NCBI GenBank assembly: GCA_963850905.1 | Contig: CAWKMU010000003.1 | Location: forward strand, 128,001 to 192,000 | Reading direction: 5' to 3' | Length of the DNA: 64,000 nucleotides | Source of the DNA: an uncultured Gemmatimonadales bacterium | Lineage (GTDB): Bacteria; Gemmatimonadota; Gemmatimonadetes; Gemmatimonadales; Gemmatimonadaceae | In this document: one piece after another, positions 28,783-49,753 of the stretch | Position numbering within the stretch: the first letter of the stretch is position 1 | Layout of the letters: each line of letters begins with the position of its first letter | Notes under the pieces: generated by a model | What the model was told of the DNA's origin: nothing | Databases searched by the model: none | What the model saw: the letters and a program-made list of their open reading frames with translations, nothing else | Position numbers and translations under genes: made by a program

Positions 28783-28953
28783 GGGGACCGGGGGTCAGGG
28801 GTCAGGGAACAAATCGAAAGGCCGATCACGGCGCGCCGCGACCGGCCTTGGACCGGTAGGGGCGACGCATTGCGTCGCCCGTCGTTGTCTTCTCCTTTTT
28901 TCGTTGTCGTTACGGTTACCGTTCCCAGACCCCAAACCCCAGACCCCAGACCC
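28783..28953 (+). repeat. complete composite REP element with inverted heptamer arms (MITE-like)
   Basis: Left GGGGTCA x2 + GGGAAC; hairpin; REP 28856-28880; right GTTCCC + A(G/A)ACCCC x4. Confidence 0.85.
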
Positions 28954-28966
28954 GCCGTTCCGCCCC

Positions 28967-34453: not shown

Positions 34454-34846
34454 CTACCAGATCACGGCGAGCAACTCGCCGCCTTGTCGGGTCTGTCGAG
34501 CTTCGCGATCCGTCATCACGCCCTTCGACGTGCTGACAATGGCCATCCCCAGACCATTGCGGACCCGGGGCAGCTCGCCCACCCCAACGTATTTCCGCAG
34601 GCCAGGCGTGGATACGCGATGCAGCTCGCGGATCACCGGCTGCCCGCCCTGAGCGTACTTGAGGATCAGCCGCAGGATGCGCTCCTGCTCCAGCACCTTG
34701 TAGTCCTGGATGTAGCTGTTCTCCTTCAGCACACGCGCGATCTCGAGCTTGAGGCGCGACAGCGGCACGTCGACGCGGCGATGCTTCGAGCCGCACGCGT
34801 TGCGAATGCGCGTCAGCATGTCGGCCACCGGATCAGTCATTGTCAT
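34454..34846 (-). CDS. rpsH: 30S ribosomal protein S8
   Basis: TDPVADMLTRIRN, STPGLRKY, STSKGVMTD. Confidence 0.97.
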   Translation of the reverse strand: MTMTDPVADMLTRIRNACGSKHRRVDVPLSRLKLEIARVLKENSYIQDYKVLEQERILRLILKYAQGGQPVIRELHRVSTPGLRKYVGVGELPRVRNGLGMAIVSTSKGVMTDREARQTRQGGELLAVIW

Positions 34847-37739: not shown

Positions 37740-37793
37740 GCTGCATCATCCTCGTTGCGCCCGTACACATCCTGCCTTCGGTCTCCCCACGGC

Positions 37794-37894
37794 GGGCGAC
37801 GCAGTGCGTCGCCCCTACCAGCCCACTCACTCCACCTCGTCTCAAGCACGAGTTGTTGTCGTTCCCCAGACCCCAAACCCCAGACCCCAAACCC
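37794..37894. repeat. reverse-oriented GTAG REP (37794-37818) plus GTTCCCC-A(G/A)ACCCC heptamer arm
   Basis: Between rpsC and rplP; arm matches 28921-28953. Confidence 0.85.
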
Positions 37895-37899
37895 TCGAC

Positions 37900-39445: not shown

Positions 39446-39488
39446 ATAAGAACCCGAAAGTGACTGTGGATTCGGCTCTACGCTTAGT

Positions 39489-39523
39489 AACCCGAAACCC
39501 GGAACCCGAAACCCGAAACCCGG
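39489..39523. repeat. heptamer tandem repeat AACCCG(A/G) x5
   Basis: Directly read; between rplB and rpsS. Confidence 0.85.
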
Positions 39524-39527
39524 CCGT

Positions 39528-42554: not shown

Positions 42555-42566
42555 AATCAAACCGAT

Positions 42567-42620
42567 GTAGGGGCGACGCATGCGTCGCCCGGTTGGTAGG
42601 GACGGCGCACCCGTCGCCCC
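42567..42620 (+). repeat. GTAG REP unit (42567-42590) plus degenerate second unit
   Basis: GTAGGGGCGACGCATGCGTCGCCC then GTAGGGACGGCGCACCCGTCGCCCC, between tuf and rpsJ. Confidence 0.88.
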
Positions 42621-42642
42621 ATGGTGAACAGCAGTCGCACGG

Positions 42643-43848: not shown

Positions 43849-45945
43849 TTAAGACTTGACTTTGTTGATGATTTCTTCCGCCTTCGACTTCGGCACTTCC
43901 TCGTAGTGGGCGAACTCCATCGAGTACACGGCACGCCCTTGTGATTGCGACCGGAGCTTGGTGGAATAGCCAAACATCTCCGACAACGGCACCGTCGCCG
44001 CAATGACCTGCGCCTCACCTCGCTGCGTCATGCCGCCGATCTTACCGCGCCGAGCCGCCAGGTCGCCGAGGACGTCACCCATGTAGTCGTTGGGCACCAC
44101 CACCTCGACGTTCATGATCGGCTCGAGCAGCACAGGGTGCGCGCGCTTCGCTGCCTCCTTGTACGCCATCGACCCCGCAATCTTGAACGCGATCTCGCTC
44201 GAGTCGACATCGTGGTATGACCCGTAGGTCAGCTCGACTTTCACATCGACCATCGGATAACCGGCCAGAATGCCGTTCTCGAGTGCTTCCTTGATCCCGT
44301 CCTCGACCGGCCCGATGTACTCTCGCGGAATCACGCCGCCGACGATCTTGTCCTCGAAGATGAACCCTTGGCCCGGCTGCGCAGGCTCCATACTGATCAC
44401 CACGTGGCCGTACTGCCCGCGACCACCGGATTGGCGGATGAACTTGCCCTCCACCTTCTCGACGCGTCGCCGAATCGTTTCGCGATACGCGACCTGCGGC
44501 CGGCCGATGTTGGCGTCGACTTTGAACTCGCGCTGCATGCGGTCGACGATGATCTCGAGGTGCAGCTCGCCCATGCCCGAGATGATCGTCTGCGCCGTTT
44601 CCTCGTCCGTGTGGACGCGGAAGGTCGGGTCCTCCTCCGACAGCTTCGCCAGAGCGATCGCGAGCTTGTCCTGATCGGCCTTGGTCTTCGGCTCGATCGC
44701 GACATCGATCACGGGCGCCGGGAACTTCATCGCCTCGAGGATGATCGGCTTGTCGTCGTCGCACAGCGTATCACCGGTGCGCGTGTCACGCAGACCGATC
44801 GCCGCCGCGATGTCGCCCGCGCGCACTTCCTCGATCTCCTCGCGCTTGTTGGCGTGCATCTGGAGGAGACGGCCGATCCGCTCGCGCTTGTCCTTCACGG
44901 AGTTGTACACGTACGAGCCGGTCGACAAGACGCCCGAGTACACCCGGAGGTACGTCAGCTTCCCGACAAACGGATCCGTGGCGATCTTGAACGCGAGCGC
45001 CGCGAACGGCTCGCTGTCCGAGACGTGTCGCTCGGAGTGCGTCTCATCGTGATGCGGGAGATGCCCGCTGATGGCTTTGACGTCGAGCGGCGCCGGCAGA
45101 TAGTCGATCACGGCGTCAAGCAGCGCCTGCACACCCTTGTTCTTGAACGCCGCGCCGCACAGCACGGGCACGATGTGCCCGCCGATCGTCGCCGTCCGGA
45201 TCGCCCGCTGGATCTCGTCCAGCGTCAGCTCGTGCGAGCTCAGGTACTTCTCCAGCAGCGGCTCATCGTGCTCGACCGCCGCTTCGATGACTTCGTGCCG
45301 CGCCTGCTCCATCGCGTCGCGGTACATCGCGGGGACCTCGATCTCCGTGTAGGTCTTCCCCAGCGTCTCATCGTCGAAGATGACCTGCACGCGTCGCAGC
45401 ACGTCGATATGCCCGGTGAAGAGCTCACCCGACCCGACCGGCAGCTGGATCGGGAACGCCGACTTCGTCAGGCGATCACGAATCATGCGCACGCATCGAT
45501 CAAAGTCCGCGCCCACGCGATCCATCTTGTTCGCGAAGATCAGCCGCGGCACCTCGTACCGATCGGCCTGCCGCCACACGGTCTCGGTCTGCGGCTCCAC
45601 ACCGGCCACCGAGTCCAGCAGCGCCACCGCGCCGTCGAGCACGCGCAGCGACCGCTCGACCTCGACCGTGAAGTCGACATGGCCGGGCGTATCGATGATG
45701 TTGATCCGGTGCTCGATGCCGTGCCGCATCCAGAAGCAGGTCGTGGCCGCAGAGGTAATCGTGATCCCCCGCTCCTGCTCCTGCTCCATCCAGTCCATCG
45801 TCGCGGTCCCTTCGTGGACCTCGCCGATTTTGTAGCTCTTGCCCGTGTAGTACAGGATGCGCTCGGTCGTCGTCGTCTTCCCGGCATTGATGTGGGCCAT
45901 GATGCCGATATTCCGATAACGTTCGAGCGGGGTCATACGCGCCAT
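43849..45945 (-). CDS. fusA: elongation factor G
   Basis: AHINAGKTT (usually AHIDAGKTT), [25 protein letters not shown]. Confidence 0.98.
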
Positions 45946-45962
45946 GTGTCGACTCTCTCAAT

Positions 45963-46150
45963 CCCCCGAAGGGGCGTTCTATTCAGCAAAAATGCGGGTG
46001 GACCGAGCACCCCCTTCACAACCGGGGCTGGTATCCATCCGCTCCATCGCCGGGTGCAGCCGCACTCCAACCGCGGCTGGGGACCCTCGGCGCGTCGCCA
46101 GGTGAGCGCGAACGCCCACCGCGACGTCAAATTGTCGTCGATCTGCTACA
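45963..46150 (-). ncRNA. candidate structured 5' leader RNA of fusA-tuf-S10 transcript
   Basis: Four predicted hairpins, three of them nearly abutting: two with UUCG loops, two with GGUUG-starting loops; U-rich run after the third. Confidence 0.6.
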
Positions 46151-46158
46151 GCCTGATG

Positions 46159-46186
46159 AAGTTAACCGGACAAAAAGGTGTGTCAA
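46159..46186 (-). promoter_or_regulatory. putative sigma70 promoter for fusA
   Basis: TTGACA-N16-TAACTT on minus strand, directly upstream of the structured leader. Confidence 0.6.
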
Positions 46187-46383
46187 CCGGTGCAAGCCCG
46201 CGTCGACGCAAGGATGAGCGATGAGGACGCGAATAGTCAATTTATCGCACCCTACGACCTCGACGCCGGCCGTCGAGCCCTCACCAACTCTCTACCTGTA
46301 CAACCGGGCGCGGCCGGGCGATGTTGTTGCATGCTGCCACGGCCCGGGTTGAACAACTCACTGGACGTGGCGGGCACCTCTCT

Positions 46384-46989
46384 GTGACGACGAAACTTGG
46401 CGCCGATCTGCTCGAGCACACCCTGGTGTATCGGGTGTGGCAAGCGCCCTTCGCGGAGCGGAAATTCGCGCCGATTCGGGCCCACAACGACCTGACGGCT
46501 GTCCGCCGGGTCCTCGATGTGGGGTGTGGTCCCGGCACGAATACGCATCACTTCGCCAACGCAGACTATCTCGGCATCGACATTAACGCCGCGTATATCG
46601 AGGCGGCCCGGCGTCGCACGGGACGCCGGTTCGTCGCAGCTGACGCCACGACGTTTACCGTCGATCCCGCGGAGCGATTCGATTTTATCTTCCTCAATAG
46701 CTTTCTGCATCATATTGACACGCCCGACGTCATGCGGCTGCTCCGGCATCTGGCGACGCTGCTGAGCGACGACGGACGGGTGCATATTCTCGACTTGATC
46801 CTACCCCCAACATCGTCTGTCGCACGGACACTGGCACAGTGGGATCGTGGCCACCACGCCAGACCGCTCGACGAGTGGACGAGCATTTTTACCGATGCCT
46901 TCGTTCCAGAGATCCAAGAACCGTATCGCCTCAGCACAGCAGGCGTGACACTCTGGAACATGTTGTACTTCCGGGGCCGTCGCCCGTGA
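46384..46989 (+). CDS. class I SAM-dependent methyltransferase
   Basis: VLDVGCGPG, GIDIN, FVAADA, FLHHI; start uncertain. Confidence 0.9.
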   Translation: MTTKLGADLLEHTLVYRVWQAPFAERKFAPIRAHNDLTAVRRVLDVGCGPGTNTHHFANADYLGIDINAAYIEAARRRTGRRFVAADATTFTVDPAERFDFIFLNSFLHHIDTPDVMRLLRHLATLLSDDGRVHILDLILPPTSSVARTLAQWDRGHHARPLDEWTSIFTDAFVPEIQEPYRLSTAGVTLWNMLYFRGRRP

Positions 46990-48023
46990 CGGAGACCAAG
47001 GGCACAGACGGCGTTCATTCGGCCGGTGCCCTCGCCCTCGAACCCAGCAGTCTACGGCCGGCACGCCCGCCACGGATATCGGTTGCAATCCCGCTGTACA
47101 ACGAGGAGCACGGCGTCCTCGAGTTACTCCGCCGGGTCTCGGCCGTGCTGGACACGCTGAGTGGCGGTCCCCACCAGATCGTCATCGTCGATGATGGCAG
47201 CCGTGATCGGACGATGGAGTATCTGGAGAAGGTCGCCGCCACGGATGCCAGGATCGTCGTCATTGCGCTGTCGCGCAATTTCGGGCACCAGGCGGCGTTG
47301 ACTGCTGCGCTCGACTACGTCACGGGAGATGCGACCGTCCTCATGGATGGCGACCTTCAGGACCCGCCGGAAGCGATCCCCGAGTTCGTACGGCAGTTCG
47401 AGCTGGGCTTCGATGTCGTCTACGCACAACGCGTGCGTCGTAAAGAGCCGTGGCCGTTGCGGGCGTCATACTACCTGTTCTATCGTTTGATGCGCCGCCT
47501 GTCCGATCTGCCGGTCCCGATCGACGCGGGAGATTTCGGCCTGATGTCGGCGCGCGTCATTCGACAGATCCGGGCCACGCCGGAACGCAATCGGTACCTC
47601 CGAGGCCTGCGCGCCTGGGCGGGATTCCGACAGGTGGGCATCCCCATCGAGCGGAGCGAGCGGTTTACAGGCGAGAGCAAATACAGCCCGTTAAAGCTGT
47701 TGCGACTCGCGTCCGATGGCATCTTCGCATTCTCCATCGTCCCGCTCCGGGCAGCCGCCCTCGTCGGACTGGCCAGCATCACGTTCGCCGTCTTGTTTGC
47801 GGCCTACGCCGTCTACGCGAGGGTGGCACTCCACCGATCCCCGGCCGGCTTCACGGCCCTCACCATCCTGATCACGTTCCTGGCCGGCGTGCATTTGCTG
47901 TTCCTCGGCGTGATCGGTGAATACGTGGGCCGCGTGTACGAGGAAGTGAAGGCCCGACCCGTGTACATCGTGGGTCGCGTCGTCCGTCACGACGCCGAAC
48001 GCCACGCGACGCCGGGGAGCTGA
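46986..48023 (+). CDS. GT2 polyprenyl-phosphate glycosyltransferase (GtrB/DPM-like)
   Basis: IPLYNEE, VDDGSRD, SRNFGHQAAL, MDGDLQDPPE, GDFGL, two C-terminal TM helices, GEYVGRVYEEVKARP. Confidence 0.93.
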   Translation: MTETKGTDGVHSAGALALEPSSLRPARPPRISVAIPLYNEEHGVLELLRRVSAVLDTLSGGPHQIVIVDDGSRDRTMEYLEKVAATDARIVVIALSRNFGHQAALTAALDYVTGDATVLMDGDLQDPPEAIPEFVRQFELGFDVVYAQRVRRKEPWPLRASYYLFYRLMRRLSDLPVPIDAGDFGLMSARVIRQIRATPERNRYLRGLRAWAGFRQVGIPIERSERFTGESKYSPLKLLRLASDGIFAFSIVPLRAAALVGLASITFAVLFAAYAVYARVALHRSPAGFTALTILITFLAGVHLLFLGVIGEYVGRVYEEVKARPVYIVGRVVRHDAERHATPGS

Positions 48024-48029
48024 TCAAGG

Positions 48030-48797
48030 GTGGATTCCGAGTATGCGCGCCACTATCGCACCTTGTTCGAGGAGCATTGGTGGTGGCGGGCGCGTGAAGC
48101 GGTCATTCTGAGCGTCCTCCGACGATATCGGCCTGCGGGCGGTTGGTCGCGAGCGCTCGATATTGGATGCGGCGATGGGTTGTTCTTCGAGCGCCTCGCC
48201 GCATTCGCGCCGGTAGTCGAAGGCATCGAGCCGGCCAGCGAGCTCGTGACGGATGCTGGGCGCAAGCTCGGCACGATCCACGAGGTGCCATTCGATGAGC
48301 GATTTGCACCTGCGCAGCGCTACGGCCTGATCCTCATGCTCGACGTCCTCGAGCACCTCGATCACCCCGCGTCGGCCCTCGCGCACGCCCTCGATTTGCT
48401 CCAACCAGGCGGCATGATGCTGGTCACCGTGCCGGCCTTCCTGGCACTGTGGACTCGTCACGACGAGGTCAATCACCACCGCACCCGCTACTCCCGGTCG
48501 AGCTTTACGCAGCTCGCGGAGCCCACGGGTTTCGAGATCGATTGGACTGAGTACTGTTTTCACTGGACCGCCCCGGTCAAGCTGGTGCAGCGTGCGGTCG
48601 AGGCGGTCACTCCTGGCCCTCCCCGCGCCCCGACGATCCCCGCTGCACCCGTCAACCGGCTTCTGTACCTGGGCTCGCGACTGGAGCGGGCGCTGCTCGC
48701 CCCCCTGCGCCTTCCATTCGGGACATCACTGCTCGTGGTAGGAGGGCGGCGCGGCGAGCGCGACCAGCGTCACCAGGGGCCGGCACCTATCAAATAG
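48030..48797 (+). CDS. class I SAM-dependent methyltransferase
   Basis: HWWWRAR, LDIGCGDG, LDVLEHL, TVPA, HDEVNHHRTRY. Confidence 0.92.
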   Translation: MDSEYARHYRTLFEEHWWWRAREAVILSVLRRYRPAGGWSRALDIGCGDGLFFERLAAFAPVVEGIEPASELVTDAGRKLGTIHEVPFDERFAPAQRYGLILMLDVLEHLDHPASALAHALDLLQPGGMMLVTVPAFLALWTRHDEVNHHRTRYSRSSFTQLAEPTGFEIDWTEYCFHWTAPVKLVQRAVEAVTPGPPRAPTIPAAPVNRLLYLGSRLERALLAPLRLPFGTSLLVVGGRRGERDQRHQGPAPIK

Positions 48798-48820: not shown

Positions 48821-48849
48821 GAAGGCCAGCGACGTCGTCGCTGGCCTTC
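48821..48849. terminator. 13-bp stem-loop between convergent methyltransferase and rpsG
   Basis: GAAGGCCAGCGAC-GTC-GTCGCTGGCCTTC; no long U tract. Confidence 0.55.
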
Positions 48850-48887: not shown

Positions 48888-49358
48888 TTACCACCGGTAG
48901 TGCGCGAATGCCTTGTTCGCCTCAGCCATACGATGCGTGTCGTCCTTCTTCTTAATGGAGTTCCCCTCACCCTTGGCCGCCGCAATTACCTCGGCCGCCA
49001 GCCGCTCGGGCAGCGATTTCTCGTTCCGCTCGCGCGTGTAGGTGATCAGCCACCGCATCGCCAACGTCGTCCGCCGTTCCGGCCGGACCTCGACTGGCAC
49101 CTGGTAGGTCGCGCCGCCGACGCGCCGGCTCTTCACTTCGACGACAGGCTTGAGGTTCGACAACGCCTGCTTGAACACCGTCACCCCAGGCTGGCTGGTC
49201 CGCTGTTCCACCAGATCCATCGCGTTGTAAAACAGCCGCTCGGCCAGCGACTTCTTGCCCTGCAGCATCATCGCATTGATGAACTTCGATACGGTCTGGC
49301 TGTCATACCGCGCGTCCGGCAGGATGGGACGCTTCACCGACTTCTTGCGTCGACTCAC
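48888..49358 (-). CDS. rpsG: 30S ribosomal protein S7
   Basis: [32 protein letters not shown]. Confidence 0.98.
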
Positions 49359-49753
49359 GACTTCTTACCTCCGGCAGCGCCACCCTTGGGCTTCTTGGTG
49401 CCGTATTTTGAGCGACTCTGATTCCGGCCGGTCACCCCGGAAGCGTCCAGGCTGCCCCGCACAATGTGATAGCGGACGCCCGGGAGATCCTTCACACGGC
49501 CGCCCCGAATCAACACGATGGAATGCTCTTGCAGGTTGTGACCTTCGCCCGGAATGTAGGCCGTCACCTCGAAGCCGTTCGTCAGTCGGACGCGCGCGAC
49601 TTTGCGTAGCGCCGAGTTGGGCTTCTTGGGCGTAGTCGTGTACACGCGCGTGCACACACCACGCTTTTGAGGATTCGACCGGAGCGCGGGGGCCTTTTCC
49701 TTCTTGATCACGTCGCGGCGGCTTTGCCGGACGAGTTGATTGATAGTCGGCAT
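49355..49753 (-). CDS. rpsL: 30S ribosomal protein S12
   Basis: [31 protein letters not shown]. Confidence 0.98.

Follow-up and report, generated by a model that had tools for sequence, protein, structure and literature searches.

The 64,000-nt stretch of DNA analysed here (the window) carries, upstream of fusA, a leader RNA whose core is an imperfect, terminator-like hairpin, H3. Together with its U-tail, H3 was found in all of the parsed fusA regions from Gemmatimonadales (45 from family f1, 56 from f2 and 4 from f3; a first search pattern recovered 104 and a second all of them) and in 0 of 27 fusA regions from other orders and classes. Judged from its sequence, the leader appears to work like a ribosomal-protein leader attenuator with a core that resembles the S8 binding site, and it is itself undescribed in the literature that we found. 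Whether surplus S8 stabilises H3 as a terminator and in this way attenuates the fusA-tuf-S10-spc-map transcript seems to us evenly balanced. For a lineage abundant in soil and freshwater, the proposal specifies ligand, site and mechanism; if true, it would place an rRNA mimic inside a terminator and extend S8 feedback to elongation factors. Should S8 prove to be the wrong ligand, the leader is still a cis-regulatory RNA of the whole order that Rfam lacks.

According to the ORF list and Pfam matches, the str operon of the window is divided into two parts, with rpsL-rpsG lying apart from fusA (Table 1). From fusA the genes continue through tuf, rpsJ...rpsQ, rplN...rplO, secY and adk to map as an unbroken run on the minus strand (ORF list), with about 25 RNA-binding proteins encoded downstream of the leader. 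The gene for the proposed ligand, rpsH, lies 11 kb downstream of the leader within this same-strand run, which has one promoter signature and a terminator-like hairpin after map; its product keeps the KY and VSTSKG RNA-contact motifs of S8, and 1s03, the spc complex, is among its PDB matches. A three-gene cassette on the opposite strand cuts off rpsG, and S7 is therefore not encoded downstream of the fusA promoter here. The same promoter and leader are present in a relative (G004) that lacks the cassette and has an rpsG-fusA gap of 516 nt, so that the cassette lies 5' of a pre-existing promoter; in another relative (G001), GT and MT2 genes likewise lie 3' of rpsG. Two short minus-strand ORFs of the window overlap the leader. 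Many relatives have a U-tailed hairpin 3' of rpsG, plus varied inserted genes, and in the window a palindrome without a U-tail follows rpsG (48821-48849), with two or three similar copies elsewhere in the genome.

Table 1. Features of the fusA leader and its surroundings, in window coordinates
Feature	Position	Strand	Remarks
rpsL	about 49355-49753	minus	
rpsG (S7)	48888..49358	minus	Pfam; upstream of, and outside, the predicted fusA transcript here
Methyltransferase - GT2 glycosyltransferase - methyltransferase cassette	46321..48797	plus	between rpsG and the fusA promoter
-35 hexamer TTGACA, predicted fusA promoter	46181..46186	minus	sequence; relatives
-10 hexamer TAACTT	46159..46164	minus	16-nt spacer
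Conserved AGGCT	46150..46154	minus	predicted transcription start about 46152-46154
A/C-rich single-stranded linker (ACAA) before H1	46127..46136	minus	alignment of f1; loose pattern, low in information
H1	46093..46126	minus	basal 5-bp helix conserved, top of variable length
H2	46048..46092	minus	CGCC/GGCG and GGGU/ACCC helices, CCC x Y internal loop, covarying upper stem; family-specific
H3	45994..46042	minus	imperfect terminator-like hairpin, order-wide; 105/105 parsed in-order regions
S8-like core, 5' strand GAUACC	46030..46035	minus	equivalent of 16S 639-644; U and A bulged
S8-like core, 3' strand GGUC	46001..46004	minus	equivalent of 16S 596-599
H3 U-tail AUUUUUGCU	45985..45993	minus	predicted release or pause at U+9 (45985)
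H4	45964..45974	minus	small hairpin before the Shine-Dalgarno (SD) sequence; mainly in the genus
SD-like GAGAGAG	45953..45959	minus	sequence
fusA (EF-G)	43849..45945	minus	Pfam, ORF list; start 45945; heads the gene run
rpsH (S8), proposed ligand	34454..34846	minus	53% identical to E. coli S8; PDB S8 matches
Terminator-like hairpin 3' of map	28818..28849	minus	predicted end of transcript, about 17 kb

The promoter TTGACA-N16-TAACTT had been placed correctly by the first-pass annotation and is conserved upstream of the hairpins in relatives. The signature TTGAC-N17/18-TANNNT was found upstream in 31 of 45 f1, 17 of 56 f2 and none of the 4 f3 regions (shuffled background 0-0.05), with a 16-nt spacer in 45 of the 48 matches, and TANNNT-N4-NGGCT in 29 of the f1 and 15 of the f2 regions. 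On the minus strand between 28300 and 50200 the only such signature is the one before the leader; a consensus promoter scan of the window returned no promoter and thus missed it. In relatives whose rpsG-fusA spacers are short (down to 108 nt) the promoter signature is lacking, and transcription presumably reads through from rpsL. The leader region of one relative (G106) occurs in RNA runs, four of which are assembled contigs with flat depth over the whole stretch and for that reason say nothing on starts, ends or levels.

The fusA 5' regions were anchored on rpsG or EF-G protein matches, except for four that came from a DNA search including the leader; the genomes are a hand-picked subset of those with matches, and membership of Gemmatimonadales was taken from record titles. 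Of 137 loci, five (two in the order, three outside) were left out for want of a parsable fusA. The unpublished genomes G016, G199, G097 and G249 contribute at most one row each to the tallies, and none of the claims rests on these genomes. A covariance model of H3 (R1), built from 88 of the 105 in-order sequences, gave one strong match each (E <1e-6) in 99 of 105 in-order genomes, a set overlapping the training data, and no strong match in 44 other genomes. An exact-pattern scan of 185,579 genomes yielded at least 120 loci, with about 700 estimated; among the 120 listed, 111 have fusA downstream and the U-tail, three have the tail but a short flank and six are chance matches, and the named records that carry the motif bear the titles Gemmatimonadaceae, Gemmatimonadales or Gemmatimonadota. 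The novelty claimed against Rfam stood, as Rfam 15 gave no match at the gathering threshold in the window, the best E values being 0.81 in the leader region and 1 in 20 relatives.

All four proposed hairpins were recovered on the minus strand where the first-pass annotation had drawn them, H1 with an additional 2-nt UG bulge in its 3' arm that the earlier notation had skipped. In the cross-family alignment (A2), 99.8% of H3 cells are paired. For the 35-pair named structure in the 45 f1 sequences the value is 96.4%, with two-sided changes at 13 of 35 pairs; the covariation sought among relatives is present in H1 and H2 within f1. None of 500 shuffles scored as high, and slid controls gave 35-43%, both figures being uncorrected for kinship. 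RNAalifold independently recovers the upper stem of H2 and both helices of H3, and does not recover H1 or the lower helices of H2. Across families the base of H3 changes from UG/CA to GC/GC, two compensatory pairs that are probably one ancient event. Only two sequences have a pair at the position above the GCGG/CCGC base, which is otherwise kept unpaired (A.C 89, A.G 9, U.U 2, A-U 2, U.C 1, insertion 2; n=105). An earlier caveat, that the A-C mismatch in H3 would pair better on the other strand, is resolved in favour of the minus strand, given that A.G and U.U pair on neither strand and that both U-tail and promoter face fusA.

Folding of the single sequence is no better than chance on the minus strand (z -0.49, 60 of 200 shuffles as good), and the plus-strand fold of the leader region gives z -1.52. 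The leader is nevertheless real, the evidence being conservation and covariation rather than single-sequence folding. That the hairpins arose by chance in a GC-rich spacer or belong to a dispersed repeat there, which would agree with that z value and with the many palindromic repeats in operon spacers of this genome, is already refuted by order-wide conservation, covariation and occurrence as a single copy, no second copy of the leader having been found in the source genome; we regard this reading as having next to no chance.

In all 105 sequences the GC-rich GCGG/CCGC base of H3 is followed by six to eight U in the next nine nucleotides, with U at +2, +3 and +9 in all 105, at +4 in 104 and at +5 in 96, and G at +10 in 88. 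The stem ends 19-136 nt before the fusA start codon and therefore leaves the SD uncovered. The anatomy of H3 is that of a predicted conditional terminator or pause and not of a translational operator. Outside Gemmatimonadales, some rpsG-fusA spacers of other orders and of another class end in U-tailed hairpins that have no S8-like core. Family f10, whose spacers have GCCGCCC...GGGCGG and a partially conserved loop in common, offers a candidate leader of its own. U-tailed hairpins of this kind would suit a ligand-free role for H3, in which it would act in partial termination, in pausing or in RNA processing/stability and so fix the proportion of rpsL-rpsG to downstream transcripts, or would answer to general factors only (NusA, NusG, nucleotide levels), as would the invariant U+9 with frequent G+10 and a candidate attenuator reported between rpsG and fusA of streptococci (PMC2965389, available portion). 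However, a plain terminator needs no invariant bulged A and ACC/GG beside a freely varying top, and constitutive termination would waste transcription in the at least 48 of 105 regions in which H3 lies directly behind its own promoter. We consider a ligand-free role unlikely.

The near-invariant core of H3, GA-N-ACC/GGUC, is the same in shape as, and very close in sequence to, the S8 site in helix 21 of 16S rRNA, which in E. coli reads AGUC (596-599)/GAUACU (639-644); the E. coli helix 21 and spc operator sequences were taken from annotated K-12 DNA. The equivalents of G597, C643 and A642 are kept in all 105 leaders, and the 3' strand is GGUC in 104 and AGUC in one. At the equivalent of position 641, which is variable in rRNA too, all four bases occur (U 68, G 32, A 4, C 1). 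H3 and helix 21 are alike in G597-C643, variable 641, invariant A642 and Watson-Crick pairs 598-640 and 599-639; they differ in that the strand order of H3 is permuted and that it has no purine at 595. The core pairs, G597-C643 included, are invariant, and their pairing is therefore not provable by covariation. In free RNA the pairing probability of C644-G596 is low (0.07 here, mean 0.23-0.5), and invariance of ACC/GG despite this improbable pair suggests recognition at the level of sequence.

In other phyla, some 700 stored 16S stretches have GGUC/GANACC as their natural helix 21, and an identical core occurs in the 16S rRNA of Gaiellaceae, Thermoleophilia, Atopobiaceae and some Bacillota. 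Among 50 in-order 16S sequences, A642 and C643 are invariant, G597 is present in 47 (the other three being register shifts of the parser) and G596-C644 in none. The source genome's own helix 21 is AGGG/CCGACU and that of most f1 16S sequences AGCG/CGAACU, with other pairs than H3 at 598-640 and 599-639, so the leader core does not track host rRNA. The commonest helix 21 in f2/f3 16S is AGUC/GAGACU (9 of 20 stretches), and compared with this AGUC type the S8 site of f1 16S is unusual.

A loose S8-like core occurs 419 times in the 4.49-Mb genome, equivalent to a chance of about 1% per 250-nt leader, and only the copy in the leader has the basal stem and U-tail. A stricter scan of the minus strand from 28900 to 49900 found no S8-like core with two flanking pairs; it also missed H3, and its negative at rplE is weak. 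The rule for the bulge, applied to shape only, also fits positions 1318/1329 of E. coli 23S rRNA with a different sequence; in E. coli 16S rRNA only helix 21 fits it with full flanks.

At the equivalent of position 595, 96 of 105 leaders have C or U, as against A in 90 of the 97 distinct 16S helices that share the core. A direct mimic of the second base triple is consequently lacking, and a prediction that rRNAs with G596-C644 carry a pyrimidine at 595 failed. A conserved G stands 3-5 nt upstream of the 595 equivalent, on the same strand and within the adjacent internal loop, in 98 of 105 leaders; as a speculation by analogy, it could take part in a G-(G-C) triple resembling the one described for the aptamer in the available portion of PMC4176348.

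The 595 mismatch speaks against S8 and is one reason for weighing an autogenous attenuator with another ligand from the operon (e.g. L4, L22, S19, L18 or S10/NusE), bound at H3 or at the family-specific H2. The RNA-binding proteins encoded downstream offer many candidates, and S8 does not explain the near-invariant lower helices and CCC loop of H2 in the f1 sequences. For an S7-type ligand, the UGGA/UCCA helix of f1 resembles the S7 consensus CCA/UUGGR given in the available part of PMC3616713, but it becomes GCGA/UCGC in f2/f3, and rpsG lies outside the predicted transcript here. For L18, helix II and loop B of in-order 5S rRNA (30 loci) are unlike H3. That helix 21 alone fits the bulge rule with full flanks in E. 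coli 16S rRNA, and that f2/f3 keep H3 and lack H2, likewise count against another ligand, which we hold to be conceivable but doubtful. The ligands first suggested, S7, L4, S10 and EF-G, left out S8, to which the sequence points.

H2 is absent from f2 and f3, which retain H3, and because other families place different hairpins upstream of H3, we take H3 to be the core of the leader and H1 and H2 to be additions of f1. In the f1 alignment, 94.7% of H1 cells are paired and three of five pairs show two-sided changes. The lower helices of H2 (97.7% of cells paired) are nearly invariant and, together with the CCC loop, almost so in all 45 f1 sequences, and its upper stem shows two-sided changes at five of seven pairs; H2 may be a second protein site. 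The broad claim of the first-pass annotation, a conserved, lineage-specific, covarying leader or attenuator upstream of fusA-to-map, was borne out. Its tandem GGUUG sites were not: GGUUG stands at the start of the H2 loop in 2 of 42 parsed family members, and the top of H3 contains it in 1 of 105, so that the shared loop starts are incidental. H4 does adjoin the SD-like GAGAGAG, as had been noted; an order-wide role for it is not supported, with H4-like hairpins in most of nine same-genus rows folded and not in the five other f1 rows (14 rows in all). H4 does not pair with the SD in the family, and it was rejected as an SD-sequestering element. In a subgroup of f2, an extra conserved helix, which has an anti-SD-like CCUCC and a pyrimidine loop of 1 x 3, lies upstream of H3 (12 of 56 by a strict pattern, more by eye).

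The arms of H2 (46061-46080) resemble those of H3 (45994-46042) with their order swapped, a hint of old duplication or of alternative pairing. In a switch of the Bacillus L20/L10 type, the 5' arm of H2 would pair with the 5' arm of H3 as an antiterminator, and a ligand on H2 or H3 would decide the fold. The H2 arm is compatible with the invariant H3 arm at five of six positions in 42-44 of 45 sequences, and the sole column with purine-pyrimidine flips faces the mismatch A of H3; the column pattern, however, also follows from ordinary transition bias. The duplex (-13.2 kcal/mol) would have to displace H2 arms of -18.4 (whole H2 -25.3), was not seen in co-transcriptional folds of the window and is not evident in f2/f3, all of which makes such a switch improbable. 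No convincing antiterminator for H3 was found among alternative pairings and co-transcriptional folds.

In the S8 mechanism that we propose, transcription would start at about 46153, or read through from rpsL-rpsG in relatives with short spacers, and polymerase would pause at the invariant U+9, with reference to the elemental pause consensus. H3 appears to be deliberately weak: it keeps a mismatch above its 4-bp base and is interrupted by a 2-nt bulge and an internal loop (1 x 3-5), and most polymerases would therefore read through. S8 not taken up by new 16S rRNA would clamp the bulged core, 8-13 bp above the base; by the geometry of the RNA exit channel, the bound core would probably sit just outside it. 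The clamp would help the stem to zip and the transcript would be released before fusA, H1 and H2 probably keeping the 5' arm of H3 free. To the complete reading, an S8-sensing terminator that holds a helix-21 mimic in its stem, works with no antiterminator, controls EF-G, EF-Tu and S10-spc across the order, and has kept an ancestral-type S8 site while helix 21 of the host family drifted, with H2 perhaps adding a second input, we give somewhat less than an even chance.

NusA has a part in L4-stimulated termination at the E. coli S10 leader. That system likewise joins protein-stimulated termination to a multi-hairpin leader of S10 genes (PMC3616713, in the part available), but the fusA leader differs from it in ligand motif and position and has no Rfam match. 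In the B. subtilis L20 (infC) and L10(L12)4 (rplJ) attenuators, a ribosomal protein promotes termination in the 5' leader, as we propose here (PMC10931766, available sections); there the protein binds an anti-antiterminator, whereas in H3 the mimic lies inside the terminator stem.

The closest likeness in the core is to the E. coli spc operator, which has the same GA-N-AC-Y/R-GUC core, two-base bulge and hairpin above the core, as far as the available parts of PMC3616713 and PMC4176348 go; these describe the operator as translational and for Gammaproteobacteria. Its permuted strand order (GAAACU-hairpin-AAGUC) is also that of H3, and in both cases the ligand gene lies downstream. The spc operator acts at the start of rplE, whereas H3 stands before fusA and off the SD, where control would be transcriptional and would cover EF-G, EF-Tu and the S10 and spc genes. 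H3 also has G596-C644 and a pyrimidine-ended internal loop, unlike the single bulged A595 of the operator. On this comparison of sequences, the leader falls outside the E. coli spc operator family, from which it differs in position, mode and 595 triple. In the accessible part of a 2024 review (PMC10931766), S8 control of the spc operon is given as known for E. coli, presumed for Vibrio and unknown for B. subtilis and other species.

Structured RNAs near the head of str-S10-spc, sometimes before fusA, are likewise represented by the streptococcal rpsG-fusA 'rpsL-leader' (PMC2965389) and the Pelagibacter rpsL motif (PMC2704228), both papers being available in part; the latter motif is stated there to be unlike S7, S8 and L4 sites, and the former is set beside the fusA leader by description and not by sequence. 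No description of the fusA leader was found in the literature, of which the supplementary motif tables of PMC2965389 and PMC7247131 could still list it; the main text of PMC7247131, so far as available, mentions neither Gemmatimonad nor fusA.

Some further features of the window and its genome are worth recording. In the region of EF-G codon 20 (45886-45890) the protein reads HINAG, as against HIDAG (P-loop) in every relative read that far, a difference of one base that is either a sequencing error or a rare variant. A dispersed palindrome with about 190 copies in the genome (382 counting both strands) occupies the operon spacers at 42555-42642, 39446-39527, 37740-37899 and 28850-28966, which also carry tandem 7-nt units. 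The 23S rRNA match of the source genome (C3:3191528-3195352) is 3825 nt long, with two insertions resembling group I introns, the first of which appears by eye to carry a LAGLIDADG-like reading frame.
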